Shown: positions 718 to 39,262 of the stretch, in pieces | Numbering within the stretch: the first letter of the stretch is position 1 | Layout: every line of letters begins with the position of its first letter | Assembly: GCA_965602015.1 (NCBI GenBank) | Contig: OZ271918.1 | Coordinates: 768,001-832,000, forward strand | Length of the DNA: 64,000 nucleotides | Direction of reading: 5' to 3' | DNA from: Salinispira sp. | GTDB lineage: Bacteria > Spirochaetota > Spirochaetia > DSM-27196 > Salinispiraceae | Made by a program: the position numbers and the translations under genes | The notes under the pieces: generated by a model | The model's input: only the letters and a program-made list of their open reading frames with translations | Databases searched by the model: none | What the model was told of the DNA's origin: nothing

Positions 718-728
718 TATACCATTAA

Positions 729-8035: not shown

Positions 8036-8053
8036 TTACTACTATAAAAGTAA
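8036..8053. promoter_or_regulatory. Palindromic operator (TTACTA-N6-TAGTAA family) in the cphB/trmB divergent region
   Basis: TTACTA CTATAA AAGTAA, extended by ATG/CAT flanks. A weaker copy TTACTA CTGCAG TTATGA is at 8092-8109. Confidence 0.75.
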
Positions 8054-8121
8054 CATATTCCGACTTGCTTCGCCATCGGGAAACTGTAGTGTTACTACTG
8101 CAGTTATGATATAGTTAATCT

Positions 8122-8931
8122 ATGTCAAACTCCCTTGATTCCGCCATCGCCGACCTCATGGAGGCGGGTTTTATCGAATACGAGGCCAAGGTGTATCTCT
8201 CACTTCTGCAGAACCATCCGGCCAGCGCCTATACCATCAGCCAGAATTCTGGCGTCCCTCATTCGCGGGTATACGATATCTGCCGCCGTTTGAAGAAAAA
8301 GGGCTATGCGGTTTCATCGAGCAGCAAACCGGAAACCTTCTCACCCCTGTCCCCCGACGAGCTGGTGGACAAGCTCACCAGGGACAGCCAAAAACTGACC
8401 AAAAAACTCGGCAGCAGCCTGAAGTCGATTTCCTTCTCAAGTGATTTTGATCCCGTGTGGAATTTGCAGGACCGGGAAGAAGCCCTGGGCAAAACTGTTG
8501 AGATAATCAGCGGCGCACGGCGCATCCTGTATATCGGATTCTGGAGCGAAGAGTTCGACCTTTTGGAAGAACCCCTCCGCCACGCTCATGAACGGGGAGT
8601 TCAGGTATATATGCTGGTGTACGGACAGCTCACTCTGGATTTCGGGGAGTATTATTTCCACGACAGGGATCACCTGGACGAGATACAGGAGCAGGGCCGA
8701 AGCATCGATTTGGCGGCGGACAGTGAAATCTGCCTTTCGGGAATTCTGGGCGGCCCCGGCAAAACCGAAATGGTGTGGACAAAAAACAGCGGTCTGGTGC
8801 ACTCAATCGAAGGATATATCATCCACGATTTTTACCTGGCCGAGCTTGAAAAAGTCTTCGGCGAGGAGATGAACAGCAAATTCGGCAAAAACCTCATCGT
8901 CCTTCGCGACAAGTTTAATAAAAGCCATTGA
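8122..8931 (+). CDS. TrmB-family transcriptional regulator
   Basis: N-terminal GFIEYEAKVYLSLL...SGVPHSRVYDICRRL winged HTH, followed by an effector-binding domain (IISGARRILYI, HAHERGVQVYMLVYG). Confidence 0.88.
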   Translation: MSNSLDSAIADLMEAGFIEYEAKVYLSLLQNHPASAYTISQNSGVPHSRVYDICRRLKKKGYAVSSSSKPETFSPLSPDELVDKLTRDSQKLTKKLGSSLKSISFSSDFDPVWNLQDREEALGKTVEIISGARRILYIGFWSEEFDLLEEPLRHAHERGVQVYMLVYGQLTLDFGEYYFHDRDHLDEIQEQGRSIDLAADSEICLSGILGGPGKTEMVWTKNSGLVHSIEGYIIHDFYLAELEKVFGEEMNSKFGKNLIVLRDKFNKSH

Positions 8932-9269
8932 TTAGCCGGCAGGAGAGAGTATAGGTGTTTGAGAGTATTGCTTTTGGAATTTCCTTTGTCAGCACCCTGA
9001 TACTGATTCCTCAGCTGGCATTTAGGAAGATGACCTGTGCCATTCACAGCCATCTAGTGAAAGATAATATTTTGCCGGCGGATATGGCCAGGGCTTCCGA
9101 GATCAACTACCGCCTCCGCCGAATTTCCCGGCTTGATTCGGGCTGGGGTGCCAGACATTGGCTTTTTTCCATCGATGTGCGCCACCGCGGCGCGGTCTAC
9201 CCCATGACTTCCGCAATCGACGGGCGCTGCCAACACCGCGATGCCGTCGATTGGTCAAAACATTCCTGA

Positions 9270-10079
9270 CTAAATTACATAATCCATTGAATCAGCCATT
9301 TCGCGGTGGAGCCCCTGGCGGCGGAAAATAAGCTCAGGGGACTCGGGGTCCCGCGGGCGGGGTAGGTCAACGGAGATTTCCCGCACCACGGTCGACGGGC
9401 TTCCGGATAAAATCAAGATGCGGTCGGCCAGCACCAGGGCTTCTTCAGTATCGTGGGTTACCATGAGGGCGGGAATACGAGTCGCGCTCACCAGCGATAC
9501 CAGCTCGCCCTGGAGCCTGATACGGGTGGCACGGTCCAGGGCGCTGAAGGGTTCGTCCAGGAGCAGGAGCTCCGGTTCGGCGGCCAGGGCCCGGGCTATG
9601 GAGACCCGCTGCCGTTGTCCCCCGGAGAGCTGCCTCGGCCAGCGGTTTTCCAAACCCTGAAGCCCCAGGTCGGTCAGAAGGCCATCGGCCCTGAGGATTC
9701 GCCGATTCCGCCGCTCCCTGTGTGTTGGATAATGCATTCCGCCGTCCCTGCGGTTCCCCGGGGCCTTGTCCTGCATCCCTGTCATAACGTTTCGCCGGGC
9801 GTCGAGCCACGGGAATAGCCTTGGCTCCTGGAATACGAATCCGATTCTCCCGGCAAATGAACTCCTGCCTTCCTCAGCCGGTGACGTGGAATCCCTGACA
9901 TCGGGAAGCAGGCCGGCAATGTGTCGGAGAAGGGTAGACTTTCCGGCCCCCGACGCACCGAGTACGACGCAGAGCTCGCCGGGTATCAGATCAATTGTGA
10001 TATTCCGAAGGATTTCCCTACTGCTGCCCTCGTTTCCAAGGTGCACGCTGGAAAGCGATACACTTATTCGGCGGTCCAT
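9270..10079 (-). CDS. NitT/TauT/SsuB-type ABC transporter ATP-binding protein
   Basis: Walker A GASGAGKST, VFQEPRLFPW, LSGGQRQR, LLLDEPFSALD, VTHD. Confidence 0.9.
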   Translation of the reverse strand: MDRRISVSLSSVHLGNEGSSREILRNITIDLIPGELCVVLGASGAGKSTLLRHIAGLLPDVRDSTSPAEEGRSSFAGRIGFVFQEPRLFPWLDARRNVMTGMQDKAPGNRRDGGMHYPTHRERRNRRILRADGLLTDLGLQGLENRWPRQLSGGQRQRVSIARALAAEPELLLLDEPFSALDRATRIRLQGELVSLVSATRIPALMVTHDTEEALVLADRILILSGSPSTVVREISVDLPRPRDPESPELIFRRQGLHREMADSMDYVI

Positions 10080-12057: not shown

Positions 12058-13011
12058 TCAGTGAGAGACGATGACCGTGCCCGCCTCTCCCCGTATTGCC
12101 GAGGGCAAACTGTCCACATCGGTGATGATAACCTTGTTGCCCGGATCGGCCTGGACAAACTCAATTGCCGCTCCGATTTTTGGTCCCATAGAGCCTGCGG
12201 GGAACTGGCCTTGACGCTGATAATGCCGGGCCTGCGCAAGGGTTATGCGGCTCAGGTCCTTCTGATCTGCCTTGCCGAAATTAATCGATACCCGGGGAAC
12301 CCCGGTGATAATAATAAGCTCATGGGCCCCCACCGCCAGGGCAAGCTTCATGCTCGCCAGATCCTTGTCGATGACGCAGTCCAGCCCTTCGATCAGCCCG
12401 TTTTCATCCCAGTACACCGGAATACCGCCCCCGCCCCCGGAGATGACCACATAATCTTCGTCGATGAGGTGCCTGATTGAGTCCTTCTCAATAATATCAA
12501 GCGGGTAGGGCGATGCCACGTATCGCCGCCAACCGCGACCCGCGTCTTCCTTAACCACCCAGCCGTGTTCTTTTGCAAGCTTCCTGGCTTCGGCTTCATC
12601 GTAAAACGGACCGATGGGTTTGGTGGGGTCCTCCATGGCCGGATCGGCGGGGTCGACCACGACCTGGGCCGGTATGGTAACCACATTCCGCCAAATCCCG
12701 TTTTGAATCATGGTGTTCTGCAGGCTTTGCTCGATCATATAGCCGATTGAACCGCAGGTCATGGCATCGGCAACTCCCAGTGGAGTTTCCGGAAGGGAAT
12801 TTCGTGAATTTTCCACCATGAGCATAATATTGCCCACCTGGGGACCGTTTCCGTGGGTGATTAGCAGGCGATAGTCGGATTTCAGCAGCTCGGCCAGACC
12901 AGCCATGGAATCCCGTGTGGCCTGAAACTGGGCGTGAATATCGCTTCCCCGTTTTTTGTCGAGAATGGCATTTCCCCCCAGGGCGACCACTGCAAGGCGC
13001 TTTTCTTCCAT
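12058..13011 (-). CDS. arcC: Carbamate kinase
   Basis: VALGGNAI, THGNGPQVG, PTKPIGPFY, WRRYVASP, GGGGIPV, VIDKD, GSMGPK. Confidence 0.95.
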   Translation of the reverse strand: MEEKRLAVVALGGNAILDKKRGSDIHAQFQATRDSMAGLAELLKSDYRLLITHGNGPQVGNIMLMVENSRNSLPETPLGVADAMTCGSIGYMIEQSLQNTMIQNGIWRNVVTIPAQVVVDPADPAMEDPTKPIGPFYDEAEARKLAKEHGWVVKEDAGRGWRRYVASPYPLDIIEKDSIRHLIDEDYVVISGGGGGIPVYWDENGLIEGLDCVIDKDLASMKLALAVGAHELIIITGVPRVSINFGKADQKDLSRITLAQARHYQRQGQFPAGSMGPKIGAAIEFVQADPGNKVIITDVDSLPSAIRGEAGTVIVSH

Positions 13012-13065: not shown

Positions 13066-13117
13066 TTACTACTTTGATAGTAAAAATACTATAGTCCCTG
13101 GAAAGCTCTGCTGTCAA
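13066..13117 (-). promoter_or_regulatory. arcC promoter with overlapping palindromic operator
   Basis: Minus strand TTGACA (13117-13112)-N18-TATAGT (13093-13088). Perfect operator TTACTA CTTTGA TAGTAA at 13066-13083 covers the predicted +1. Confidence 0.75.
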
Positions 13118-19849: not shown

Positions 19850-19894
19850 TTGACAGCCCCAAAGCCTCCTGTATAATTACTACTTCAATAGTAA
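19850..19894 (+). promoter_or_regulatory. ord operon promoter with overlapping palindromic operator
   Basis: TTGACA (19850-19855)-N16-TATAAT (19872-19877). Perfect operator TTACTA CTTCAA TAGTAA at 19877-19894. Confidence 0.8.
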
Positions 19895-19992
19895 ATAGTG
19901 CGCGCCTGGTCTGCTGTATTAGACTCAGGCCGTGGGCGCGGTGATCCCTCATGTGTGCAGCGCGTGGTTTCATCGGGCCAATGGGAGATACA

Positions 19993-21054
19993 ATGAAAGA
20001 ACGGGTCAAGGTCCTCCTCTGGGGCTTCGGGGCAATGGGATCGGGCATGGCACGGATGCTTCTGCAAAAAACCGGCGTTCAGATTAGCGCGGTTTGCGAC
20101 AATCACCCTCAGCGGGCCGGCAAAAGCATCTTTGAGGTATTGGGGCAGGAAGCAGGGGATCATCCGGATGTCATCATTCGACCTGATATACATGAAGCAC
20201 TGTCGGATGCCCGGGCCGCCGGAGCTGTATCAATCGCCCTGTTGGCTACCGATTCCTTCACCAAAATGGCTTATGAGAAAATCATGCTCCTGGTGAACGA
20301 GGGAATCAATGTTATTTCCACCGCCGAGGAAATGGCCTATCCCAGGGCAGGCGAGCCCGAACTTGCCCAGAACATTGACCGGGCTGCCAAGGCTTCCGGG
20401 GTCAGCGTGCTGGGAACCGGCATCAATCCCGGGCTGATTATGGATCTGCTGGTGGTTCTGATGACCGGCGCATGCATCAATATCGATTCGATCAAAGCCG
20501 AACGGGTCAACAGTCTATCTCCCTTCGGTCCGGCGGTAATGGAGGAACAGGGAGTCGGCCTCAGCCCCGAAGAGTTTAGAGAAGGGGCGGCCAATGGCAG
20601 CTTGGCCGGCCATGTGGGCTTTGCCGAGTCGGTGAACATGATAGCCGACGCTGTGGGCTGGAAGCTGGACGGTCCCGTTGAACAGGCAATGAAGCCAATT
20701 ATTTCGTCGGTTCCCCGCAAAACCGAGTACATAGAAATAGAAGCCGGCCAGGTCGCGGGCTGCAATATGACCGGTTCAGGAAGGGTTTCGGGGACCGGAG
20801 GCATCGAAATGGACCATCCGCAGCAGATTGAACCGGAGCTGGAGGGAACCGACACCGGTGATTATGTGACTATTAAGGGTACGCCGGATATCAATCTTTC
20901 CATCAAACCCGAAGTGCCCGGAGGCATCGGGACCATCGCCATGTGCGTCAATATGATTCCCCAGGTGATCAATGCATCTCCTGGCTTAAAAACCATGCTC
21001 GACCTGCCGGTTCCCCGGGCGATTCTGGGCGATATCCGCGACCGCATCGAATAG
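19993..21054 (+). CDS. ord: 2,4-diaminopentanoate dehydrogenase
   Basis: WGFGAMGSG Rossmann motif, STAEEMAYP, GTGINPG, GHVGF, PEVPGGIGT. First gene of the ora operon. Confidence 0.92.
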   Translation: MKERVKVLLWGFGAMGSGMARMLLQKTGVQISAVCDNHPQRAGKSIFEVLGQEAGDHPDVIIRPDIHEALSDARAAGAVSIALLATDSFTKMAYEKIMLLVNEGINVISTAEEMAYPRAGEPELAQNIDRAAKASGVSVLGTGINPGLIMDLLVVLMTGACINIDSIKAERVNSLSPFGPAVMEEQGVGLSPEEFREGAANGSLAGHVGFAESVNMIADAVGWKLDGPVEQAMKPIISSVPRKTEYIEIEAGQVAGCNMTGSGRVSGTGGIEMDHPQQIEPELEGTDTGDYVTIKGTPDINLSIKPEVPGGIGTIAMCVNMIPQVINASPGLKTMLDLPVPRAILGDIRDRIE

Positions 21055-21064
21055 GAGAAATAAC

Positions 21065-21478
21065 ATGAAGGAACGACCCGACGATTATACCCGGCGCCGT
21101 GCTCATTTGGCGGATTTGACCGAAGAGCAGCTGGAAGCCCATTTCTGGGATCTGGCCGACAAGCTGACCCAGCCCTTAATCGAACTGGCTCATGGTCATA
21201 CCAGCCCGTCAATCGAGCGCTCGGTGCTCCTGAGAATGGGCCTGTCATCCATTGAATCCCAATCGCTTGTAAGCCGGGCGGTGGATACCGGCCTGATTGG
21301 AAAAGGCGCAGGTCATATCGTCTACAAAATCAGCAAACATACGGGGTTGGATATCCGAGCGGCCGGGCAGGCTCTGGCCGAAGGCCGGTACTGGGATGAT
21401 GCGGCCCGGCTCTTCGCTCAAAGCGGACCTTCGTCAAACGCGTCGGGAACCGAAACATCAGCCGGAGGGCAACAATGA
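21065..21478 (+). CDS. oraS: D-ornithine 4,5-aminomutase alpha subunit
   Basis: RRAHLADLT, HTSPSIERSVLLRMG, GKGAGH. Directly upstream of oraE. Confidence 0.92.
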   Translation: MKERPDDYTRRRAHLADLTEEQLEAHFWDLADKLTQPLIELAHGHTSPSIERSVLLRMGLSSIESQSLVSRAVDTGLIGKGAGHIVYKISKHTGLDIRAAGQALAEGRYWDDAARLFAQSGPSSNASGTETSAGGQQ

Positions 21479-23679
21479 AGCTGGAAACGAATAAAAAGCT
21501 CGATGTCGAGGAAATCCTCAAGGACCTTGAAAGCTATCACCCTCGACGCCGCGGCTGGACATGGAGGAAGGGTATCGGCGAAAAGCGGGGTATCGGTCCG
21601 TTCGAGTACTATCAGACCAGTGAAAACCTGAACAACAATGTGCCCCTCCCTGCCGCCCATTATTTCGGAGATATCGACCCCCAGCCCGTGAGCACCATTA
21701 CCACGGAAATCGCTTCAGGGCGATTCGAGGACGACATACGCCGGATGAGAATGGCCGCCTGGCACGGAGCGGACCACCTGATGGTTATCCGCACCGCAGG
21801 CCAGAGTCATATGGACGGGCTTCTGGAGGGAACTCCCCAGGGTATAGGCGGCGTGGCGATTACCCGAAAGCAGCTGCGGGCACAGCGGAAGGCCCTTGAT
21901 GCCATTGAGGACGAGGTCGGGCGGCCCATTAACTACCACTCCTATGTCAGCGGAGTGGCCGGACCGGAGATGGCGGTACTATTCGCCGAAGAAGGGGTGA
22001 ACGGAGCCCACCAGGACCCCCAGTACAACGTCTTGTACCGCAATGTGAACATGGTCCGCTCTTTCGTGGATGCGGCTGCGGCAAAAAAAGTTATGGCCTG
22101 GGCGGGAATTGCCCAAATCGACGGCGCCCATAACGCCAACGCCACAGCCCGCCAGGCCTGGAAGGTTATGCCCGAGCTGATGGTCCAGCATGCCCTGAAC
22201 TCCATGTTTTCCGTAAAGTCCGGCATGCCAAAGGAAGACATCTGCCTTTCAAGCGTTCCTCCCAGCGCGCCTCCGGCTCCGGCCATGCGGCTCGATCTGC
22301 CCTATGCCGTGGCACTGAGGGAATTATTCCGGGATTACAAAATCCGGGCCCAGCAGAACACCAAATACATGACCAGTTCCGCCCGGGAGGCCACGGTGAC
22401 CCACACCCTGAACCTTCTGATAAGTCAGTTTACCCGGGCTGAAATCCAGTCGACCATCACCCCCGATGAGGGACGGAATGTCCCCTGGCATATTTATAAT
22501 ATAGAGGGAACAGATACCGCCAAGCAGGCTTTTAGCGGGATGGACGGTCTCATGGAGATGGTTCAGCTCCGCAGGGACGAAGGCGAGCTCGCCGATTCGG
22601 TCCGGGAGCTCAAGGAGCGGGCCGTTCTGTACATGGAGGAAATGCTCGAGCTCGGAGGGTATTTCAAGGCGGTTGAGGCCGGGATGTTCGTCGATTCGGG
22701 CAAGTACCCCGAGCGAAACGGCGATCCCATCGTCCGAAAAGTCGACGACGGCATCGGCGCCGGCACAGTGTACCCCAGAGATGAGGAGTACATGGCCCCT
22801 GTTACCGCGCACTTCGGATACAACAATCTCAAGCCCTTCGGCCCCGAAGCCGTAAAAAATCCATCCAGCCTGATCGGCGGTTCAACCTTCGAAAATCCGG
22901 ATAAAATTGTCTTCATCGATGAGCTCGACGAGAGCGACAACGTCAACCTCCGCATGGCGGAAACCGCTGAGCTCCGGGGCGGAACCAAAATCAAGCCTGA
23001 AATGGAGTGGCAGGGTGACGGAACGGTGCTTGTGACCGTCTTCCTGCCCACAGACGAGCGCACCGCCAAGGTCGCGGCTCTTGAAGTGGGTAAGGCAATG
23101 AACCTGAGCGAGTGTGAGGTTATTCACAGCGAGGTCATGCACCCCTCGGAGGGGACCCGCATCGAGTTAAAGGGCAGGCTGGATGTAATAATCGATACGG
23201 CTTCCCTTGAAATCCCCCCGGAGCCCGACATCATGACCGCCGAAGAAGTGGCAGCCGAAGTAAAGGTCCGGCCCCTCACAATAGTTGCGGGAACCGTGGG
23301 CGAGGACGAGCATTCGGTGGGCCTGAGGGAAATAATCGACATCAAGCACGGCGGAATCGAGGGGTACGGAATACAGTGTCTCTACCTGGGGACTTCCGTA
23401 CCCCTGGAAAAACTGGTTGATGCGGCCATCGAGGCAGATGCCGAGGCAATTCTGATGTCCACCATTATCAGTCATGATGAAATTCACTATAAAAATATGA
23501 AGCGGGTCCACGAGCTGTGCATTGAGAAAGGGGTGCGCGACCGCCTTCTGATTCTTGCCGGCGGAACCCAGGTAACTCCAGACCTGGCGGTAAAACAGGG
23601 AGTCGATGCGGGCTTCGGACGGGGTACCAAGGGCATCCACGTGGCCACCTTCCTGGTAAAAAACCGCAAGGGCAGGTAA
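21475..23679 (+). CDS. oraE: D-ornithine 4,5-aminomutase beta subunit (PLP and adenosylcobalamin dependent)
   Basis: RMAAWHGADH, GAHQDPQYN, ITPDEGRNVP. B12-binding DEHSVG and the PLP lysine in IIDIKHGG. Confidence 0.95.
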   Translation: MKLETNKKLDVEEILKDLESYHPRRRGWTWRKGIGEKRGIGPFEYYQTSENLNNNVPLPAAHYFGDIDPQPVSTITTEIASGRFEDDIRRMRMAAWHGADHLMVIRTAGQSHMDGLLEGTPQGIGGVAITRKQLRAQRKALDAIEDEVGRPINYHSYVSGVAGPEMAVLFAEEGVNGAHQDPQYNVLYRNVNMVRSFVDAAAAKKVMAWAGIAQIDGAHNANATARQAWKVMPELMVQHALNSMFSVKSGMPKEDICLSSVPPSAPPAPAMRLDLPYAVALRELFRDYKIRAQQNTKYMTSSAREATVTHTLNLLISQFTRAEIQSTITPDEGRNVPWHIYNIEGTDTAKQAFSGMDGLMEMVQLRRDEGELADSVRELKERAVLYMEEMLELGGYFKAVEAGMFVDSGKYPERNGDPIVRKVDDGIGAGTVYPRDEEYMAPVTAHFGYNNLKPFGPEAVKNPSSLIGGSTFENPDKIVFIDELDESDNVNLRMAETAELRGGTKIKPEMEWQGDGTVLVTVFLPTDERTAKVAALEVGKAMNLSECEVIHSEVMHPSEGTRIELKGRLDVIIDTASLEIPPEPDIMTAEEVAAEVKVRPLTIVAGTVGEDEHSVGLREIIDIKHGGIEGYGIQCLYLGTSVPLEKLVDAAIEADAEAILMSTIISHDEIHYKNMKRVHELCIEKGVRDRLLILAGGTQVTPDLAVKQGVDAGFGRGTKGIHVATFLVKNRKGR

Positions 23680-25205
23680 TGAGCGCCGGAGGAGTATTAA
23701 CCGTCGACCTGCTGTCGGCGGAAATCGGCAGCACGACGACGGTGGTCAGCGCCTTCGACGGACTGGGCCTGGAATCCGGATCCTCGGTTTTTCGGGGCTC
23801 GGGCGAGAAAGCCCATGCCTCCGCAGCGCCAGATGCGCCGCACAGGAGCAAAAGCGCCGGAGTTCCCCGGTTTCTCGGTCAGGGTTCAGCGCCGACCAGC
23901 GTGTATCCCCCCCAAGCCGACGTCCGCCTTGGTCTGGAGGCGGCGATCAGCGATCTCGCCGCCCGCCTGGGATATGACAGACTGGAGTGGCGAAGATTCT
24001 CCGCCAGCAGTTCGGCGGCCGGCGGCCTGCGGATGAGCGTGCACGGCCTGGTGTATGACATGACGGTTAAGGCCGCCCGGGAGGCCGCCCTGGGGGCCGG
24101 GGCGAACATCATTCATGTCACCGCCGGCCGTCTGCGCCGTCTGGACATCAAAAAAACCATCGAGCACAAGCCGAATATAATCATGATAGCCGGCGGTCTG
24201 GACTACGGTGAGCGGGACACGGCCCTGGACAACGCCGAGCTTATTTCAGCCGCCCTGTCTTCTGCGGGGCTCCCGATTCCGGTGATCTACGCCGGAAATA
24301 TTGAAAACCACGATGAAATCCGGGAGATCTTCTCGGGTCATGCAAGCAGGCTCTATATCTGCGAGAACGTATACCCCCGCATCGACGAGCTGAACATCGA
24401 GCCGGCCCGCCGGATCATCCAGGACGTGTTTGAGCAGCACATCGTGCATGCCCCGGGCATGGAGCATATTCGCGAGCTGGTAAACGGCCATATTATGCCG
24501 GTTCCCGGAGCGGTTATGGCAAGCGCCAGGCTTTTGCGGGAATCGATCGGCGATGTAGTGGTTTTCGACGTCGGGGGCGCCACCACGGACATACACTCGG
24601 TGTGCTCCGATTCGCCGGAGATCGAGCGCATACTAATCGCTCCGGAGCCCCTGGCCAAGCGAAGCGTCGAGGGCGACTTGGGGGTGTATGTAAACCGAAT
24701 TAGCATTGTGGAGACAGCGGGTTGCGACGCGATAGCCGCATTTTTATCACGGGAAGCTATCCAAACACCCGGTTTGCATCCCGGCAGCCAGGAACTTGAG
24801 GACGAAATCCGACGGCTGCCGCCCATCCCCGTATCGGCCAGGGAGAAAGCCCTTGTCCGGGCCCTGACATTTCACGCCTGCCGCATCGCCCTGCAGCGCC
24901 ATGCGGGATGCCTGCGGGAACTGTACAGCATTTCCGGAAAGGAAACCCTTGCGGAGGGCAAAGATCTGAGCGCCGTGCAATACCTATTGGCTACCGGAGG
25001 CGCTCTCACCCGTCTCCCCGATGCCCCGGCAATACTCAGGGCGGTCCTGGCGGCACGAAGGGGCGCTGAACTCTACCCCCTGCCGAACACTCCCATTTTG
25101 CTGGACAATGATTATATTATGGCTACCATGGGAGTTCTTGCCGGCGAATACCCCCGGGAAGCCCTGTGGCTGCTAAAAAAAAGTCTGGGAATACATAATG
25201 AATAA
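23679..25205 (+). CDS. GlmL/MutL-type reactivating factor for ornithine aminomutase
   Basis: ASKHA motifs AEIGSTTT, SSSAAGGL, DVGGATTDIHS, KRSVEGDLG. Usual position in ora operons. Confidence 0.88.
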   Translation: MSAGGVLTVDLLSAEIGSTTTVVSAFDGLGLESGSSVFRGSGEKAHASAAPDAPHRSKSAGVPRFLGQGSAPTSVYPPQADVRLGLEAAISDLAARLGYDRLEWRRFSASSSAAGGLRMSVHGLVYDMTVKAAREAALGAGANIIHVTAGRLRRLDIKKTIEHKPNIIMIAGGLDYGERDTALDNAELISAALSSAGLPIPVIYAGNIENHDEIREIFSGHASRLYICENVYPRIDELNIEPARRIIQDVFEQHIVHAPGMEHIRELVNGHIMPVPGAVMASARLLRESIGDVVVFDVGGATTDIHSVCSDSPEIERILIAPEPLAKRSVEGDLGVYVNRISIVETAGCDAIAAFLSREAIQTPGLHPGSQELEDEIRRLPPIPVSAREKALVRALTFHACRIALQRHAGCLRELYSISGKETLAEGKDLSAVQYLLATGGALTRLPDAPAILRAVLAARRGAELYPLPNTPILLDNDYIMATMGVLAGEYPREALWLLKKSLGIHNE

Positions 25206-27123
25206 GAATCCACAACTGCACGATACATCGGGGCCCCTTGTAGAGGTCGATATTGAAGCCATAGAAAACAACGCCCGAATTATCTGCGGACTCTGCGCGG
25301 ACAACGGCATAGAGGTCACGGCGGTGACCAAGGTTACCTGCGGCATGCCCCAGGTCGCCAAAGCCCTGCTCAGATCGGGAGTACGTCAGCTCGGCGAAAG
25401 CCGGCTTGAAAATATCTACCGCCTGCGTTCCGGGGGCATCAGCGCGTCGGTCATGCTTCTGCGAATTCCCCCGATTTCCGCTGCCGAAGAAATCGTGCGC
25501 AGCGTTGACATCAGTCTCAACTCCGAGCTGCCGGTCATTGAACGGCTGTCGGAAGTCGCCCTGTCCATGGGCACGGTGCACCAGATTATTCTCATGGTTG
25601 ACCTGGGCGATCTCAGGGAAGGAATCTGGCCCGAGGACCTCATGGGCACAGTAGCCAGGGTGATTGAGCTAGAGGGTGTAAAAATCCGAGGACTGGGCAC
25701 AAACCTGACTTGCTATGGCGGAGTAATCCCCACAGAAGAAAATCTCGGCCGCCTGGTGAACTATGCGGAGACTATTGAAGACCGCTTCGGATTCGCTCTG
25801 GATGTCATATCAGGGGGGAATTCATCCACCCTCGATTTGCTTGCTGCCGGCAAGGTGCCCCGCCGGGTCAACAATCTGCGAATAGGCGAGGCCATTCTAT
25901 TAGGGCGGGAGACCGTAGAACGGCGGCCGTGGCCGGGTACCAGCCAGAAAGCATTTGTGCTCAGCGCCGAGCTCATAGAAAAGAAGGTCAAACCCTCGGT
26001 GCCCATCGGCGAGACCGGTCAGGACGCCTTCGGCGGCAAGCCGGTGTTCGAGGACCGGGGAGACCGCCTCCGGGGAATATTAAACATCGGACGGGAAGAT
26101 GTAGACGTTGATGGGCTTGAGCCCGTCGATTCCGGAGTACGGGTAATGGGCGCATCCAGCGATCACCTGCTTGTAGACCTCAGCGATGGGGAAAAACAAC
26201 CCGAGCTGGGCGATCGTGTGAAATTCATACCCAATTACTCCGCCTTGCTCGCATGCATGACCAGCGAATACGTCGGCAAGCGGGTAAGGCTTCCCGAGGG
26301 ACGGGATCAAACCACAGCTTCCACGGTGGCCCTGGCCGGCGAGCTCTTCCGCAAGAAAAAATACGGAAAGGAACTGGATATGTGGCTCGACCGCCTGGGC
26401 TATGTCAGGAAACAGCTCGGCGACCAGGCAGCTGCGGCTGAAATTGCCGGACATATCCGTCCCGGATCAATTCCGGTTCTCGGCGGCAGGAAATACAGCG
26501 TCCGGGGACTTGAGGCTGCAGGCCAAAGCATGAGTCAGTTCGGGCTCCTGTGGGTGGACTCGACCATCGCCGCGGAGGAATTGCGGCGGGTCCTGGGTCC
26601 GAGGGCCTTGATGGATAATGGCCCGGACAACCAGGCGGTTCGCGGCAAAACCGGCTCCGCTGAGCCTCACCACCATGCATCCTCGCTGGCCCTGGAGAAC
26701 ATCGTCCTGCTCGGAGTCCGGGAAATCGAAGAAGGCGCAGCCCGGCTCATCAGGCGTTTGGGCATCAGGGTGTACACCATGGAAGAGGTTTCCCTGCTGC
26801 CAATGAGGGAGATAGTCCGTCGATCCATCGCCCGCTGCAGCAGGGGAACCGAGGGAATCTATCTTAAATTTTCAGGCAGGGTGGCGGATAACGGTAATGA
26901 CGGTCTTACCAACCGGGAGACCCATCTCATTATGGAGCTTATCGCCGCAAGCGGAGCCCTGAGGGTGTTCGAGATGGATGATGACGATATCGGCGGTCTG
27001 GAGTCCTCGTATGTTCGCAGCAGCAGACAGGCCAGCGCGAACATGCCCCGCTTTTTGTTGTCCGCCCTCGGCAAGCGAATACTCGGCGCACCATCACCGA
27101 GCTCACCAGAGGCCTCCGGGTAG
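25198..27123 (+). CDS. orr: Ornithine racemase fused to a degenerate arginase/ureohydrolase-like domain
   Basis: AVTKV (PLP Lys), DLGDLREG, GTNLTCYGG, ISGGNSS, SSDHL. C-terminal ENIVLLGVRE..GIRVYTMEEV..GLTNRE. Confidence 0.85.
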   Translation: MNKNPQLHDTSGPLVEVDIEAIENNARIICGLCADNGIEVTAVTKVTCGMPQVAKALLRSGVRQLGESRLENIYRLRSGGISASVMLLRIPPISAAEEIVRSVDISLNSELPVIERLSEVALSMGTVHQIILMVDLGDLREGIWPEDLMGTVARVIELEGVKIRGLGTNLTCYGGVIPTEENLGRLVNYAETIEDRFGFALDVISGGNSSTLDLLAAGKVPRRVNNLRIGEAILLGRETVERRPWPGTSQKAFVLSAELIEKKVKPSVPIGETGQDAFGGKPVFEDRGDRLRGILNIGREDVDVDGLEPVDSGVRVMGASSDHLLVDLSDGEKQPELGDRVKFIPNYSALLACMTSEYVGKRVRLPEGRDQTTASTVALAGELFRKKKYGKELDMWLDRLGYVRKQLGDQAAAAEIAGHIRPGSIPVLGGRKYSVRGLEAAGQSMSQFGLLWVDSTIAAEELRRVLGPRALMDNGPDNQAVRGKTGSAEPHHHASSLALENIVLLGVREIEEGAARLIRRLGIRVYTMEEVSLLPMREIVRRSIARCSRGTEGIYLKFSGRVADNGNDGLTNRETHLIMELIAASGALRVFEMDDDDIGGLESSYVRSSRQASANMPRFLLSALGKRILGAPSPSSPEASG

Positions 27124-33341: not shown

Positions 33342-34337
33342 TTACAGGTTTCCGATTGTGGCGACCATTACTGCCTTGATGGTGTGCAGCCGGTTTTCCG
33401 CCTGGTCGAAGACCACCGAGTGGTGGCTTCGGAACACCTCATCGGATACTTCCATTTCATGCAGACCGAATTTTTCCTTGATTTCCCGGCCGATTTCTGT
33501 GGCAGTATCGTGGAAGCTCGGAAGGCAGTGGAGGAATTTAACGTCGGGGTTTCCCGTTGCCTTAACCATTTTCATGTCCACCCTGAAAGGCTCGAGAAGT
33601 TTTATGCGTTGGGCGAACTGCTCCTCTTCACCCATTGAGACCCACACGTCGGTGTACAGCACGTCGGCTCCCTTGACCCCCGAGGCTATGTCGTCGGTGA
33701 GCACTATGCTGCCGCCGGTGGCATTGGCGACCAGCTTCATTTCTTCTACCAAATCCGGATCGGGAAACAGGCTCTTCGGCGCTACCGCGACGAAGTCGAT
33801 TCCCATCTTTGCCGACCCGATCATGAGGCTGTTGCCCATGTTGTTGCGGGCATCGCCGACGTAGACGAATTTTACCCGGTCCATGGGTTTGCCCACATGC
33901 TCCTGCACGGTCAGCAGATCGGCTAAAACCTGAGTCGGGTGGTAGCGGTCGGTGAGACCGTTCCACACCGGCACACCGGCATAACGGGAGATTTCGTTGC
34001 AGGTTTCCTGGTGAAAGCCCCGGAACTCGATGCCGTCGTAGTACCGCCCAAGAACCCTGGCGGTATCTTCGATGCTCTCCTTTTTGCCCATCTGGCTGTT
34101 GGACAGAAAAGTCACCTGTCCCCCTTCGTCGAACGCGGCGGTTTCGAAAGCCGCCCGTGTTCTGGTGGATGTCTTCTCGAAGAGCAACACGATATTCTTC
34201 CGGTCAAGCAGGTCGCCGCGTATGCCGGCGCGCTTCTTGTTCTTGAGATCGCGGCTGAGCTCCAGCAGATAGCGGATCTCCTCGGGGCTGAAATCTTTCA
34301 GCGTAAGAAAATGACGTCCTTTCAGATTTACTGGCAT
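33342..34337 (-). CDS. arcB: Ornithine carbamoyltransferase (catabolic context)
   Basis: [32 protein letters not shown] at 34337 after GAGGAG. Downstream of arcA. Confidence 0.93.
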
Positions 34338-34411
34338 TTGCTTCTCCTCATTATGTGTTCCGGCCCAACCCGGCCCAGGCCTTCGGGGCATCGGCCGCCC
34401 GGCCTTGTGTA

Positions 34412-35659
34412 CTAGCTCTCTTGAGAGTAATCCCTGGCCAGGGGCATGCTCATGCAGCGCGGACCCCCCCGGCCCCGGACCAGCTCCGATCCGGGTATTT
34501 CAACCACTTCCACGCCGTTTTTGCGAAGCAGGTCGTTTGATACCCGGTTCCTGCGGTAGGTAATCACCTTGGCCGGAGCAATGGCCAGGGTATTGGTACC
34601 GTCATTCCATTGCTCCCGTTCGGCGGTAAGCAGATCTCCGCCGCCGGTTTCGATGAGCTGCACCGCATCGATATCCAGCGCTGAAGCCAGGGTCCCCTTG
34701 AGATTTTCCCGGCTTTGAATGCGGATCTCGCCGTTGCCCGCAGGGGTCAGTTCGAAAAGTGTAATGTAATCTGCAATGCCGGGGAAGATGGTGAATTTGT
34801 CCCGGTCCACCATGGTGAACACCGTGTCCAAATGCATATAGGCCCGGGCGAAGGGTATCTGCATGACCAGTACCCGCCGCAGCTCGCTGTGTTCGGCGAA
34901 AAGCCGCTGGGTAAGCTCCTCAATGCCCTCGGGACTGGTGCGCGCGCTGCACCCGATGGCCAGGGTATGGGGACTGAGAATCAGGATGTCCCCTCCCTCG
35001 ATGCTGTCCCGTTCGTCGTAATGGTGCCAGGGCTTTTGACCGTGGCTCAGGAATCGGGGATGAAACTCGGCAATATACTCCAGCAGCATGCTCTCCCGAC
35101 GGCGGGCCCTGGCTTTCATGGTATTTACCGATAGCCGGTTGCCGATTACCGTGCCGTAGTCTCTGGAGAAGTAGAGATTGGGAAGGGGATCGAGATAAAA
35201 GGGGTAGCCCTCTTTAATATAAAAAGACAGCCGCTTCTCCTCGCCCCGGTGGGGAATCTCGGTTTTTGTAAGACCCGAAACCAGACTGCTGGCAAGATCG
35301 CCATCGGCCTTGTCCAACAGCAGCTGTCTGATATCTTCCTTCAGGGTTCGGGAGTTTACCCTCAATTCATCGAGAACCTCGTTAACTATCAGATCACGGG
35401 CCACGCCCCGTTCATTGCTGCGGCTCAGGGACTCGGCGAGCAGGTCCTCGAAGTACAGAACTTCCGCCCCGTGCTCCCGCAGGCGGGCGGCAAATTCATC
35501 GTGTTCTTTCTGCATCTGTTCAAGGTATGGTATGTCCTCGAAAAGCATCTCATCGAGATATTTGGGCATGAGCTGCTCGAGTTCCCGCCCCGGACGGTGA
35601 AGCAGGATACTCTGAATGGGATCAATCTCCGATCTGATGTTGAGAAATGCCGTACTCAT
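34412..35659 (-). CDS. arcA: Arginine deiminase
   Basis: [46 protein letters not shown]. Confidence 0.95.
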
Positions 35660-35692: not shown

Positions 35693-35753
35693 TTACCACT
35701 GTAATAGTAATAATGGAAGAGCAAAAGGACATCTGTTACTATTGCAGTAGTTA
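35693..35753. promoter_or_regulatory. Two palindromic operators in the arcA/ortA divergent region
   Basis: TTACCA CTGTAA TAGTAA (35693-35710) and TTACTA TTGCAG TAGTTA (35736-35753), each one mismatch from consensus. Confidence 0.75.
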
Positions 35754-35802
35754 TGATAAAATATCATCACCTGCCGTGCACCATAATTCAGGAGGCCGCC
35801 GG

Positions 35803-36114
35803 ATGATACCACAGGGAAGTCTCGTCGACATTCACACCATTCTGCTCAGCGCCGACCAGCGCAGTTCTTCAATCCCCGAGGACACCAAACGGGTGAATCT
35901 GGAGATGAAGGTCAAGGGCATTCTCTGCGCCGATGCGTCCCCCGGCGATTCGGTGGAAATCGAAACGCCCGTCGGGCGAAGGCTCAGGGGTACCCTGATA
36001 GAGGCCTATCCAGCCTATAAACACCGATTCGGACCGCCGATTCCCGAGCTGGTGAATATCGGAGGCGAACTTCGCCGCATCCTTCGGGATTACCGGGAGG
36101 CTGCTGATGAGTAG
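35803..36114 (+). CDS. ortA: 2-amino-4-ketopentanoate thiolase alpha subunit
   Basis: PEDTKRVNLEMKVKG, ETPVGR, HRFGPPIPEL. ATG at 35803 after AGGAGG. Overlaps ortB. Confidence 0.88.
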   Translation: MIPQGSLVDIHTILLSADQRSSSIPEDTKRVNLEMKVKGILCADASPGDSVEIETPVGRRLRGTLIEAYPAYKHRFGPPIPELVNIGGELRRILRDYREAADE

Positions 36115-37561
36115 GGTAGCACAAGACCGGGACCGCAGCTACCAGGCGGTCATGGCCCGAAAGTCGGAAATCATGCGCAGTTCGGTGGGCATAGACTACA
36201 GCGCGTACAACCACGGCACAATCGCCTTCGACTATGAAGCAATGCTTTCCGATCCGGGCTACGCCATTGAGGACATCGCCGCAATTCAGGCTGAAACCGC
36301 GGTGGGCAACACCCCCCTGGTTGAATTAAAAAATCTCACCGATATTGTCAGAGCCATGTCCAAACCCGGCATGGGCGCCAGAATCTTCATCAAGGATGAA
36401 GCCGCCAACCCTTCGGGATCATATAAGGACCGCCGGGCTTCTCTCTCAGCATGGGAGGCAAAAAAACGAGGCTACCGGGGCATCGCCGCGGCATCCAGCG
36501 GGAATTACGGAGCGGCAGTGGCCAGCCAGGCGGCAAAGCATGGTCTTGCCTCAATCATCGTTCAGGAGAGCTTTGACTCCCGGGGAGTGGAGCAGCCGGA
36601 AATTGCCGAGAAGACCCGGGCCTGCGAGGCCTACGGCGCCGAAGTGCAGCGGCTTTCGGTGGGGCCGGAGCTGTTCTATCAGTTCCTTCTCACCCTGGAA
36701 GACAGCGGTTTTTTCAACGCCTCGCTGTACACCCCGTTTTCTATTCTCGGAGTGGAGACCCTGGGAAGCGAACTGGTCAGCCAGGTCCGCAGCCGCTGCG
36801 GTCGGGACCCCGATGTGGTAATCGCCACCAACGCCGGCGGGGGTAACCTCACAGGTACCGCCAGGGGCATTGTGAAGGCCGGAGCCCAGTCATGTAGCAT
36901 TATCGGCGCCAGCGTCGACCTTTCCGGGCTCCACATGGCAAGCGACGGGGATTTTAACCGCAAGTCCTTCACCACGGGCCACACCGGCTTTGCCATACCG
37001 TTTACCACATGGCCTGACCGCAGCGACGTACCCCGTAGCGCAGCCCGTCCCCTGCGGTATATGGACCGTTTTGTCACCGTAACCCAGGGCGAGGTTTTCT
37101 ATGTTACCCAGGCACTTGCCGAGCTCGAGGGAATGGAGCGGGGCCCGGCGGGCAACACCTCCCTTGCCGCCGCGTTGAGCATTGCCCGGGAACTGCCGAG
37201 GGAACAGATTGTGGTAGTCCAGGAGACAGAGTATACCGGTGCGGGAAAGCATCCCATAGCCCAGCTGAATCTGGCCAGGCAGATGGGCATCGAGCTGCGC
37301 CGGGGAGACCCTTCCGAAAACCGGCCCGGCAAGGCCATCGTCATCCCCGAGCACCCATCCCAGATTCAGGCCCGAGAGGTGAGCATGGAGCGCCTCCAAA
37401 ACAGTTACCTCCAAAAAGCCCTGTCCGCCCTGGGCCGGGAGAGACCCGCGCTTGAAGTATTGGGACACTATGATATTGAGTACCTTGCAGCGGAAACCCG
37501 TCTTTCCGTCGATGGTATAAAAAAGCGTATTCTTCAGCTCGAAAATGCGAAAATCGAATAA
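36107..37561 (+). CDS. ortB: 2-amino-4-ketopentanoate thiolase beta subunit (PLP)
   Basis: VGNTPL, KDEAANPSGSYKDRRA, SSGNYG, ERGPAGNTS, VQETEYTGAGKH. Confidence 0.92.
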   Translation: MSRVAQDRDRSYQAVMARKSEIMRSSVGIDYSAYNHGTIAFDYEAMLSDPGYAIEDIAAIQAETAVGNTPLVELKNLTDIVRAMSKPGMGARIFIKDEAANPSGSYKDRRASLSAWEAKKRGYRGIAAASSGNYGAAVASQAAKHGLASIIVQESFDSRGVEQPEIAEKTRACEAYGAEVQRLSVGPELFYQFLLTLEDSGFFNASLYTPFSILGVETLGSELVSQVRSRCGRDPDVVIATNAGGGNLTGTARGIVKAGAQSCSIIGASVDLSGLHMASDGDFNRKSFTTGHTGFAIPFTTWPDRSDVPRSAARPLRYMDRFVTVTQGEVFYVTQALAELEGMERGPAGNTSLAAALSIARELPREQIVVVQETEYTGAGKHPIAQLNLARQMGIELRRGDPSENRPGKAIVIPEHPSQIQAREVSMERLQNSYLQKALSALGRERPALEVLGHYDIEYLAAETRLSVDGIKKRILQLENAKIE

Positions 37562-37628
37562 ATTACCCTTGCATTTTGCGAAATACGTTTTATTATCAGC
37601 GTAGAACGACCTGTTTCGGAGGTAGAGT

Positions 37629-38765
37629 ATGATAGTTGGAACTGTCAAAGAAATAAAGCGGCATGAATACCGGATCGGCCTCACTCCCCAGTGCGTGGCG
37701 GCCTATGTTTCTCACGGCCACAGCGTGCTGGTGGAGAAGGAAGCCGGACTGGGTGCGGGATTCACCGATGAGGAATACACCGAGGCCGGAGCCCAGCTGG
37801 CCGACAGCGCGGCAGAGGTGTTTAAAAAGGCCGATATGATCGTCAAGGTCAAGGAACCCCAGAAGCCCGAAGTGGCCATGCTCCGCAAGGGTCAGATTCT
37901 TTTTACCTACCTGCATCTCGCCGCCGACCAGGAGCTCACAGAATCGCTTCTGGCAAGCGAAGCCCACGGCGTGGCGTACGAAACCATCGAGCCCGAAGCC
38001 GGCTTGCTTCCCTGTCTCAAACCAATGAGCGAAATCGCCGGCAGGTTATCAGCCCAGGAAGGCGCGAAGTACCTTGAAAAGCCCTTCGGCGGGCGCGGGG
38101 TCCTTCTGGGAGGAGTACCCGGGGTGGCAAGGGGAAAGGTCGCCATTTTGGGAGCCGGCGTGGTGGGCACCAACGCAGCCCAGATCGCCATGGGAATGGG
38201 CGCCGACGTCACCATCCTGGATATCAACTCCCGCCGCCTGGAGTACCTCGACCAGCTCTATCACGGCACCCTGACAACCCTGTACTCCACGCCTCCCAAC
38301 GTAGAGCGGATCCTCCGGGAAAGCGACCTGATTATCGGGGCAGTGCTGATCCCCGGGGCCAAGGCCCCCCGGCTCGTTACCCGGCAGCAGCTCTCCCTGA
38401 TGAAACCCGGAGCCCTGCTGGTGGATGTGGCCATTGACCAGGGCGGCTGTTTCGAGACCTCCCGGCCGACGACCCATGACGATCCGGTGTATACCGTTGA
38501 CGGCATACAGCATTACTGCGTAGCCAATATGCCCGGAGCCGTAAGCCGGACCTCTACTCTGGCCCTGACCAGCACGACCCTTTCGTACGGGCTTATGCTG
38601 GCCGACAGGGGCATACAGACCGCATGCCGCAATAATGCCGCCCTGCGCCGAGGGGTTAATACCTTCGCAGGGAAGTTGACCTGCAAGGCTGTCGCCGAGG
38701 CCTTCGCTCTGGAATATACCGATCCCGCCGGAATTTTCGACGCCCCCGCCACGGCTTATGTATAA
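37629..38765 (+). CDS. ald: Alanine dehydrogenase
   Basis: VKVKEP, FTYLHLA, PMSEIAGR, GAGVVG, DVAIDQGG, YCVANMPG. Confidence 0.95.
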   Translation: MIVGTVKEIKRHEYRIGLTPQCVAAYVSHGHSVLVEKEAGLGAGFTDEEYTEAGAQLADSAAEVFKKADMIVKVKEPQKPEVAMLRKGQILFTYLHLAADQELTESLLASEAHGVAYETIEPEAGLLPCLKPMSEIAGRLSAQEGAKYLEKPFGGRGVLLGGVPGVARGKVAILGAGVVGTNAAQIAMGMGADVTILDINSRRLEYLDQLYHGTLTTLYSTPPNVERILRESDLIIGAVLIPGAKAPRLVTRQQLSLMKPGALLVDVAIDQGGCFETSRPTTHDDPVYTVDGIQHYCVANMPGAVSRTSTLALTSTTLSYGLMLADRGIQTACRNNAALRRGVNTFAGKLTCKAVAEAFALEYTDPAGIFDAPATAYV

Positions 38766-39195
38766 ACCCGACGAAGTCGACTGGAGTATTATCCGGCTGC
38801 TTCGGGAGGAATACGAAAACAACAACGCCATCGCCCGGAAGCTTGGGGTTTCAGAGGGCACTGTCCGCCAGAGAATACGCCGCCTCAAGGAGGCGGATAT
38901 TCTCAGGGTGCGCGGACAGATCAATCCGGATATCCTGGAAGAGCAGCAGCTTGCCCTCATCGGAATAAATGTGGGGCCGGCGGGAAAGCTCGAGACAAAG
39001 GCCCGGGAAATTGCCGCTCTGTCCCATGTGCAATCGGTCTCCATCGCCTCGGGCCGCTATGATGTCCTGGCCGAGGTTCTGGTGAGCTCCAACAAGGGGC
39101 TGGTTGATTTCCTTACTCATCAGCTTTCCACCGTGGACGGCCTGATATCCTCCGAGACCTTTCTGCTCCTGAAATCATATAACCGTTTTGTATAA
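38758..39195 (+). CDS. Lrp/AsnC-family regulator (AldR-like position)
   Basis: IARKLGVSEGTVRQRIRRL HTH and SGRYD. Overlaps ald. Confidence 0.88.
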   Translation: MYKPDEVDWSIIRLLREEYENNNAIARKLGVSEGTVRQRIRRLKEADILRVRGQINPDILEEQQLALIGINVGPAGKLETKAREIAALSHVQSVSIASGRYDVLAEVLVSSNKGLVDFLTHQLSTVDGLISSETFLLLKSYNRFV

Positions 39196-39208
39196 AAACC
39201 CAGCATTG

Positions 39209-39262
39209 TTGCCCGCGGCGTCGAGAAAAGCTACAATCGAGCATATACTACTGTAGTCGTAA
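39209..39262 (+). promoter_or_regulatory. iadA promoter with palindromic operator at +1
   Basis: TTGCCC (39209)-N17-TACAAT (39232-39237). ATACTA CTGTAG TCGTAA at 39245-39262 has two mismatches to consensus. Confidence 0.6.

Follow-up and report, generated by a model that had tools for sequence, protein, structure and literature searches.

A palindromic operator likely to belong to a TrmB-family regulator of cyanophycin, arginine and ornithine catabolism in Salinispira

In a 64-kb stretch of the Salinispira sp. genome (assembly GCA_965602015.1, contig OZ271918.1, positions 768,001 to 832,000), to which we refer as the window, an 18-bp palindrome is repeated in front of genes for the breakdown of cyanophycin, arginine and ornithine. 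The same window encodes a TrmB-family protein (8122-8931). The palindrome is likely to be the operator of this protein (we put the probability at roughly 80%), which would bind it as a dimer and repress transcription until an amino-acid signal releases it. The initial annotation had preferred TrmB to ArgR as owner of the operator, and our analysis sides with TrmB against both ArgR and Lrp: across genera and phyla, the motif goes with the TrmB orthologue and not with the ornithine pathway, Lrp is not conserved at the loci concerned, and the half-sites are of TrmB type.

The operator in the window and in the genome

Search of the window for TTACTA-N6-TAGTAA (TTACTANNNNNNTAGTAA) with up to two mismatches returned eight matches, against 0.43 expected from 100 dinucleotide-preserving shuffles (standard deviation 0.59, largest count 2); none of the 100 shuffles reached eight. 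Seven copies had been listed in the initial annotation, and six of them were recovered at their coordinates, namely those starting at 13066 and 19877 (no mismatch), 8036, 35693 and 35736 (one mismatch each) and 39245 (two mismatches). The spacers given for them (CTATAA, CTTTGA, CTTCAA, CTGTAA, CTGCAA on the reverse strand, and CTGTAG) are correct. The seventh, a copy called weak, lies at 8092..8109, 13 bp before the trmB start. It is not among the matches with up to two mismatches; its left half alone fits well (TTACTACT), and it scores 18.4 bits (rank 11 genome-wide) with the independent matrix described below.

The two perfect copies are placed at predicted promoters of arcC and ord. The arcC promoter is predicted on the minus strand at 13117..13088 (TTGACA-18-TATAGT, 11/12 matches); directly 3' of its -10 element stands the copy 13066..13083, which begins 4 nt downstream of it and covers +1. 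The predicted ord promoter on the plus strand (19850..19877, TTGACA-16-TATAAT, 12/12 matches) shares the last base of its -10 element with the copy 19877..19894, which covers +1 and has the top score of the genome, 28.6 bits. A terminator-like hairpin (19776-19808) closes the gene upstream of this promoter. The predicted iadA promoter (39209..39237, plus strand, TTGCCC-17-TACAAT, 9/12 matches) is followed after 8 nt by the copy 39245..39262 (ATACTACTGTAGTCGTAA, 18.6 bits, rank 10). Repressor geometry had been claimed for these three genes, and all three sites indeed lie over the -10/+1 region of predicted sigma-70 promoters.

Further copies occupy two intergenic regions between divergent genes. 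The copy between cphB and trmB (8036..8053, TTACTACTATAAAAGTAA) reaches 25.0 bits with the independent matrix, the fifth-best score of the genome, and the related genome G001 carries a site at the equivalent position (locus L034, 1326). Between arcA and ortA, an arcA-proximal copy (35693..35710, TTACCACTGTAATAGTAA) is accompanied by an ortA-proximal one (35736..35753, TTACTATTGCAGTAGTTA), which runs into the -10-like stretch TATGATAAAAT. The claim that the sites are intergenic holds for all six, with one qualification: the copy at 35736 is located inside the longest open reading frame (ORF) of ortA, 35713-36114. Since the OrtA profile match begins at residue 31-33 of this ORF and GGAGG is followed by an ATG at about 35803, the likely true ortA start, this copy was counted as intergenic. 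No copy had been seen before the interleaved cargo genes, in agreement with zero matches (up to two mismatches) in 13143-19758 and 27250-33109.

The genome is a single contig of 3,869,486 bp with 53.8% GC, and the window makes up 1.65% of it. A search for sequencing runs of this DNA returned four from a single study, none of them of RNA. Up to two mismatches, the pattern occurs 56 times genome-wide (2 perfect, 8 one-mismatch and 46 two-mismatch matches); both perfect matches, three of the eight and three of the 46 are found in the window. When a matrix was trained on the six window sites, its matches beyond the window led to functionally related genes. Since circularity was to be avoided, a symmetric 20-nt matrix was built from 36 distinct sites of non-Salinispira loci only. 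With this independent matrix, the five best positions of the whole genome are 19877, 35736, 35693, 13066 and 8036. Eleven genome positions exceed 18 bits, compared with a mean of 0.85 (maximum 3) for 20 column-permuted matrices, and seven of the eleven lie inside the window, including 39245 and the weak 8092. A matrix scan had been suggested in the initial annotation as a check on specificity; scanned in this way, the motif is not common before unrelated genes.

Outside the window (genome coordinates), sites above 18 bits are located 59 bp before a second cyanophycinase gene (2632931), just before pckA (1773114), between a serA-like 2-hydroxyacid dehydrogenase gene and an SDR gene (641394), and about 650 bp before an ABC-2 transporter gene (2588215, 19.7 bits), a doubtful member of the regulon. 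A site of 17.3 bits precedes gdhA (178800). G001, whose TrmB orthologue is 91% identical, has retained the pckA and serA-like sites. Judged from these predicted sites, the Salinispira regulon probably extends to the second cyanophycinase gene with an adjoining YfcC-like transporter gene, pckA, gdhA and the serA-like/SDR pair. If so, the aspartate branch of cyanophycin breakdown would be joined to gluconeogenesis.

The second cyanophycinase is the longer one (495 aa). Its gene and the next one occupy 2628536-2632871 of the genome on the minus strand (606-4941 of locus L002), the next gene encoding 948 aa, with a YfcC-like 'basic amino acid antiporter' forming the N-terminal half of the product. 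In G001, the second cyanophycinase gene directly follows iadA.

Operator and regulator in other genomes

An alignment of 17 homologues retrieved 80 loci from contigs representing one genome per species. These comprise 60 loci of orthologues (35-91% identity) and 20 loci of more distant homologues (30-34%; Chloroflexota, Rubrobacter). The orthologue loci belong to spirochaetes (Salinispira, Spirochaeta, Marispirochaeta, Sediminispirochaeta, Alkalispirochaeta and Oceanispirochaeta), to Desulfobacterales and other Thermodesulfobacteriota, to Ca. Zymogenaceae, and to one metagenome-assembled genome each of Planctomycetaceae and Bacteroidales. Sediminispirochaeta smaragdinae, a cultured carrier, encodes a protein of 53% identity. 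With one mismatch allowed, they contain 48 sites in 782,553 bp, whereas 20 shuffles gave 2.5 (maximum 4). At least one site is present in 39 of the 60 loci. Catabolic genes (arc, ord, ort, ora or related) were recognised in 40 of them, and 36 of these 40 possess a site, in 32 cases at most 200 bp upstream of a catabolic gene, most frequently ord (23), followed by ortA (7), arcC (6), arcA (2), arcB (1) and cphB (1). The 20 distant-homologue loci yielded a single site, against 0.25 expected.

As a control chosen by pathway, an even sample of 401 Spirochaetota genomes was analysed, 17 of which encode OrtB. The regulator profile has 17 matches at E 1e-50 or better in this sample. Five of them, close orthologues (E 1e-118 or better), come exclusively from OrtB-positive genomes, and the twelve weaker homologues (E 1e-50 to 1e-62) exclusively from OrtB-negative ones. 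Around ortB in the 12 OrtB-positive genomes that are free of the orthologue, only 2 sites with up to one mismatch were found in 208,618 bp, against 3.15 in shuffles. One of them falls within oraE; the other precedes ortA by about 290 bp, in DNA of 29% GC, and is devoid of the CT..AR spacer signature. As OrtB-positive genomes without the orthologue show no excess of the motif, we conclude that the motif follows the regulator and not the pathway. In G215, one of three further orthologue-bearing genomes of the sample, a site stands directly before arcC; the remaining two, G159 and G072, are genuine exceptions and are described below.

Alignment of 47 distinct sites from other genomes reveals that the operator is an 18-bp palindrome of 8-2-8 type, (R)TTACTAYT-NN-ARTAGTAA(Y). 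T, A and C at positions 1, 3 and 4 are invariant (47/47) and T at position 5 is nearly so (46/47). Positions 7-8 and 11-12, which belong to the spacer in the 6-6-6 pattern, are conserved as well: in the chosen orientation, C in 47/47, T in 46/47, A or G in 39 and 8 sites, and A or G in 36 and 11 sites, respectively. This explains why the spacers had been noticed to agree. Sites of other genomes mostly end 5-116 bp before the start codon, often 12-60 bp. When arcA-ortA spacers of five genomes were aligned, the two operator copies emerged as the main conserved islands. The arcA-proximal block TTACCACT..AATAGTAA is invariant in all five, including the non-consensus C of TTACCACT. The ortA-proximal copy is conserved in four; the fifth genome, G007, has a site elsewhere in the spacer.

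Among 41 relatives, the TrmB orthologue occurs in the genome itself (G000), in G001 (91% identity), in G002 (75%) and in G015 (61%), a member of another family of the order; elsewhere only paralogues of 23-28% identity were detected. OrtB was detected in the same four genomes and in G007 (57% complete). The arrangement is cphB / sites / trmB and arcC / two perfect sites / ord in G001; ord / two perfect sites / arcC followed by trmB, and ortA / two sites / arcA in G002; and trmB, a perfect site and ortA-ortB-oraE in G015. In G003 and G014, which have no orthologue, matches to the motif are not above the reversed-pattern control.

Sites preceding trmB make its autoregulation likely in this genome and in G001. 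Such control would not be general, because trmB of G002 has no site of its own; in many fetched loci, trmB lies upstream of the site. A second TrmB-family paralogue (26% identical) is encoded at 3206253-3206993 of the genome, and similar paralogues are present in G001, G002 and G014.

The TrmB-family protein and alternative explanations

The 269-aa protein matches the winged helix-turn-helix profile PF01978 over residues 13-78 (E 1.7e-18, 66.7 bits against a cut-off of 25.6). The match to PF11495 (28.6 bits, cut-off 22.2) covers only profile positions 2-75 of 233, corresponding to residues 112-189. A profile of 17 orthologues aligns with Pyrococcus furiosus TrmB (3qph) at E 3.9e-24 over residues 8-166 and with TrmBL2 at 1.7e-13. 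The AlphaFold (AF2) model (pLDDT 84.6, pTM 0.55) consists of the winged helix, a long helix (78-101), a PLD-like alpha/beta domain and two C-terminal helices (223-267). Foldseek search with this model placed TrmBL2 first (5bpd, E 3e-14); ranks 1-10 are made up of TrmBL2 (5bpd, 5box, 5bqt, 5bpi) and TrmB (3qph, 2f5t) with E 3e-14 to 2.5e-7, followed by PLD-family nucleases. The PLD-like domain is comparable with the first subdomain of 2f5t. No counterpart of the sugar-binding second C-terminal subdomain was found, as the protein ends at residue 269 and the 3qph alignment stops at 165-166. Scores for the equivalogs of sugar-sensing TrmB are far below their cut-offs (NF040851 72.5/600, NF047390 57.2/650 and NF047392 45.1/500 bits). 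The protein thus belongs to the TrmB family as broadly defined by Pfam, not to the sugar-sensing TrmB/TrmBL1 group.

Of the 58 orthologue loci aligned in this region, 57 have a recognition helix that reads SGVPHSRVYD or departs from it by no more than one or two substitutions. The exception, L089, has a garbled helix start, possibly due to a frameshift. In L094 and the 20 distant loci, taken as motif-less, the helix is SGVPRS(M/K)VYE; the recognition helix co-varies with presence of the motif. Residues invariant in the C-terminal domain (DFDPVW 108-113, W141, H180, D196, D200, W219, T220, N222, Y232, H235, D236 and E241) include polar and aromatic ones that would be compatible with a ligand pocket.

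Dyad symmetry of the site together with the habits of the family suggests that a dimer binds the 8-2-8 palindrome. Seated over the -10/+1 region, it would block RNA polymerase, as the position of the sites implies. Binding of an effector to the PLD-like C-terminal domain would then release the protein from DNA. Ornithine is favoured as the effector, with arginine as the alternative, because it is both product of arcABC and substrate of ord/ora/ort and is thus common to both conserved target sets. In Salinispira, the regulon would be widened upstream to cphB, the second cyanophycinase gene with yfcC (cphB2-yfcC) and iadA, and sideways to pckA and gdhA, perhaps to handle aspartate derived from beta-Asp-Arg.

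Several observations weigh against TrmB acting as such a repressor. The closest fold match, TrmBL2, is a chromatin protein without an effector, and the sugar-binding subdomain is missing here, so an effector is not assured. The consensus promoter scan found no sigma-70-like promoter at arcA/ortA or near the cphB/trmB operator copies. The 60 orthologue loci were chosen by TrmB, so that adjacency to TrmB is given by construction and the independent observations are presence of the motif and the controls chosen by OrtB; moreover, related genomes among the fetched loci are not independent samples. Four of the 40 loci with catabolic genes (L065, L072, L077 and L083) have no site with up to one mismatch, and in another four the site is more than 200 bp from any recognised catabolic gene. 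Among the 20 orthologue loci without catabolic genes, many of which are short contigs, 17 have no site and three do; low-GC orthologue loci L040-L045 and L075 have housekeeping neighbours (ylqF, fliG, tyrS, lipA/B) and are uninformative as to targets. G007 has the arrangement ortA / two sites / arcA without a detected TrmB orthologue, in a genome that is 57% complete, and in G002 no site with up to two mismatches precedes trmB itself. Finally, G159 (L133/L065) and G072 (L134/L072), both from low-GC lineages with trmB inside an ord-ortA-ortB-orr-trmB-ald operon, possess no canonical palindrome. They contain only a look-alike with three mismatches, ATACTAATTTTATATTAT, located after a TTGACT/TATAAAAT promoter, and a looser search for TACT-N7-9-AGTA in the exceptional loci found nothing before ord. 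The operator may have diverged in these two genomes, or a different control logic may apply.

The motif might instead be bound by an unlinked regulator, ArgR or a global one, with the trmB gene merely travelling with catabolic genes. An ArgR homologue is indeed encoded 680 kb away (95844-96257; 124 bits, just under the cut-off of 130). However, the ARG-box consensus is a different sequence, the half-sites are of TrmB type, the recognition helix changes together with presence of the motif, and the ortB loci of the 12 genomes without the TrmB orthologue display no motif excess, which makes this explanation quite improbable. Still less credit is due to binding by the Lrp/AsnC-type regulator (38758-39195), with TrmB as bystander. 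Its gene is part of the predicted regulon, where the 35736 site would give it control over its own expression, G002 has retained the gene order ald-lrp-iadA, and proteins of this type commonly control amino-acid metabolism. Their sites are typically 13-15 bp long and AT-rich, whereas the 8-2-8 operator has 18 bp. Furthermore, tblastn (E 1e-10 or better, at least 50% coverage) detected no homologue of Lrp in the 80 fetched loci, to which this search was confined and which include the 60 orthologue loci and the 39 bearing the motif. G015 keeps trmB, the site and ortA with no lrp in the 12 kb read.

Another question is the sign of control. TrmB could bind the sites as an activator or act in both ways, similarly to archaeal TrmBL1/Tgr and haloarchaeal TrmB; according to the accessible parts of two papers, archaeal members activate or repress depending on site position (PMC10817205, PMC4158304). 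The scan placed no promoter at arcA/ortA, cphB/trmB or pckA, where the site could be upstream of the promoter. On the other hand, sites cover -10/+1 at all three predictable promoters (arcC, ord, iadA), and in other genomes their short distance from the start codon (mostly 5-116 bp) leaves no room for a promoter downstream. We therefore regard activation as unlikely, albeit slightly less so than an unlinked regulator. The least credible alternative, which we hardly consider at all, is that the palindrome acts as RNA, i.e. a hairpin in the 5' untranslated region. At arcC, ord and iadA the mRNA would begin with the palindrome. Nevertheless, such a hairpin, an AU-rich stem of 8 bp closed by just 2 nt, is unfavourable on steric grounds, the orientation of the sites varies, the ortA site extends into a -10-like stretch, and base identity rather than mere pairing is conserved, with no compensatory changes that keep pairing seen among the 47 aligned sites.

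A broader proposal builds on the TrmB-operator reading. A bacterial TrmB branch would have lost the sugar-binding subdomain and turned into a dedicated repressor of ornithine fermentation and arginine deiminase operons that senses ornithine or arginine, regulator and operator would have spread jointly with these operons through no fewer than three phyla (Spirochaetota, Thermodesulfobacteriota and Planctomycetota), and the Salinispira regulon would lead from cyanophycin to pyruvate/phosphoenolpyruvate (cphB, iadA, arcABC, ord-ora-ort, ald, pckA, gdhA). We consider the chances of this proposal evenly balanced.

Genes of the locus and comparison with known systems

Most gene names of the initial annotation were upheld. 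Curated cut-offs are exceeded for arcC, ord, oraE, the GlmL-like gene, the ornithine carbamoyltransferase (OTCase) gene, ortA, ortB, ald, iadA and cyanophycinase, and arcA is named through NF002381; orr stays below its cut-off and oraS was assigned from Pfam alone. The cyanophycinase gene cphB (6819..8012, minus strand, 397 aa; TIGR02069 148 bits, cut-off 126.6; PF03575) is divergent from trmB (8122..8931, plus strand). Carbamate kinase is encoded by arcC (12058..13011, minus strand; TIGR00746 364 bits, cut-off 358). The ord-oraS-oraE-glmL-like-orr operon for oxidative ornithine degradation (19951..27123, plus strand) exceeds the cut-offs of NF040740, NF040743 and NF040744; its orr has 433 bits with NF040742, under the cut-off of 480, and oraS matches PF16552. 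On the minus strand follow the catabolic OTCase gene (33342-34391; NF003286 524 bits, cut-off 515) and arcA for arginine deiminase (34412-35659; NF002381 484 bits, cut-off 414), which reaches 472.6 bits with TIGR01078, just under 489.1. The ortA-ortB-ald-lrp operon (35713..39195, plus strand) exceeds the cut-offs of NF040739, NF040741 and TIGR00518, its Lrp/AsnC gene (38758-39195, plus strand; PF01037, PF13412) overlapping the end of ald. The last gene is iadA for isoaspartyl (beta-aspartyl) dipeptidase (39284..40477, plus strand; TIGR01975 472 bits, cut-off 331).

Taken together, and judged by what is established for the enzyme families concerned, these genes constitute a complete route from cyanophycin to pyruvate. 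Cyanophycin is degraded to beta-Asp-Arg and further to arginine and aspartate. Arginine is converted by the deiminase pathway to ornithine with gain of ATP, ornithine by the oxidative pathway to alanine and acetyl-CoA, and alanine to pyruvate.

The orr product (25198-27123) consists of a racemase part (residues 13-362) fused to a C-terminal stretch of the arginase family (PF00491 E 5.5e-6; TIGR01229 E 1.3e-10), which may provide a built-in arginine-to-ornithine step. Long orr genes of similar size are found in many of the other fetched loci. The genes arcC and ord, which in G001 and G002 are divergent neighbours sharing one two-copy spacer, are separated here by an insertion of about 6.6 kb (13143-19758) encoding a 565-aa unknown protein, a collagen-repeat protein, a 676-aa unknown protein and an RCC1-repeat protein. 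GC content of the insert is 0.51-0.52, compared with 0.55-0.59 in the flanks, and the arcC and ord promoters each kept their own operator copy. The region directly downstream of cphB (2743-6819) encodes a large histidine kinase of hybrid type that combines a LuxR-type output with 'two-component regulator propeller' repeats. Its coding sequence is split into two ORFs (6298-6819 and 2743-6246), perhaps because of a frameshift or an internal start within a single gene.

One match to the pattern, 27170, was rejected as an operator, as it belongs to four direct repeats of 11 bp (GTTAGTAT...), a different element. The array (27163-27210) has the structure GTTAGTAT cgt GTTAGTAT tcc GTTAGCAT tct GTTAGACA and stands 40-90 bp before a Na/Pi-cotransporter-related gene (27250-28959). 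It looks like a binding array of a response regulator (PhoB/OmpR type) and is unrelated to the TrmB palindrome. The match at 59559 (59559-59576, ATTACTACAGTAAT; two mismatches, 15.1 bits) can be viewed as one good half-site or as a shorter palindrome, ATTACT-AC-AGTAAT, with the same half-sites at shorter spacing. Its neighbours are a gene for an amino-acid permease-EIIA fusion (59623-61527, minus strand) and a hemerythrin-like ORF. Its membership in the regulon is doubtful.

The 2014 review of the family, in its accessible parts, treats archaeal TrmB members only, almost all of them regulators of sugar metabolism or gluconeogenesis (PMC4158304). Bacterial members are automatically named 'sugar-specific transcriptional regulator TrmB' in source records. 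We searched the literature, with subscription journals, RegPrecise-type regulon databases and supplements outside the scope, and found no paper that connects genes for ornithine, arginine deiminase or cyanophycin with a TrmB-family protein, no paper on any characterised bacterial member of the family, and no described regulator of the oxidative ornithine degradation pathway. As judged from sequence, the regulator-operator pair would represent a new functional variant of the TrmB family. If the proposed role is true, annotation would be corrected to a bacterial subfamily with its own operator and a regulon in amino-acid catabolism; in that case, a bacterial TrmB-family protein would receive a functional assignment for the first time, and the ord/ora/ort pathway its first proposed regulator. 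The matrix could be used to predict utilization of arginine, ornithine and cyanophycin in uncultured spirochaetes and sulfate reducers, and the system would offer a natural case in which to study how ligand choice shifts in a PLD-like sensor domain.

In other bacteria, substrate-dependent control of arcABC is exerted by ArgR/AhrC and ArcR, which belong to unrelated families and recognise unrelated operators. Half-sites had initially been described as archaeal in type, and the comparison agrees: the operator reads TACT-N8-AGTA, compared with TACT-N3-AGTA for TrmB of Pyrococcus furiosus and Thermococcus litoralis (PMC4158304) and TACT-N7-8-GAGTA for TrmB of Halobacterium salinarum (PMC2710871), as given in the accessible text of these sources.

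Halobacterium salinarum TrmB (VNG1451C) and its haloarchaeal counterparts share with our protein a DNA-binding domain of the same family and TACT/AGTA half-sites at nearly the same spacing. Theirs is a metabolic regulon of many operons including gluconeogenic genes, and here a site precedes pckA; if true, the Salinispira regulon would echo the archaeal link between TrmB and gluconeogenesis. Haloarchaeal TrmB has about 360 aa, possesses a sugar-sensing domain, responds to glucose or glycerol and is, in the available portions of the reports, mainly an activator of gluconeogenesis (PMC10817205, PMC4158304). In contrast, the protein described here is bacterial, comprises 269 aa without the sugar subdomain, and has arginine and ornithine catabolic operons as its predicted core targets.

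Among solved structures, TrmB of P. furiosus and T. litoralis (3qph, 2f5t) is the best sequence match. Its recognition helix in P. furiosus, SGIPYNRVYD, resembles SGVPHSRVYD. It is a repressor whose site overlaps promoter elements of the neighbouring operon, according to the accessible part of the review (PMC4158304). Spacing of half-sites differs (N3 versus N8), and the sugar-binding residues listed there for P. furiosus TrmB (Asn305, Gly320, Met321, Val324, Ile325 and Glu326; PMC4158304) have no counterpart here.

TrmBL2 (PF0496/TK0471; 5bpd, 5box, 5bqt) is the best whole-length fold match (260-264 aa, identity about 20%). It has the same succession of winged helix, long helix and PLD-like domain and likewise no sugar-binding subdomain. 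In the accessible part of the review, it figures as a chromatin protein attached to coding and intergenic DNA alike, with no defined motif and no effector (PMC4158304). Unlike TrmBL2, the Salinispira protein appears to be tied to one palindrome at a handful of promoters.

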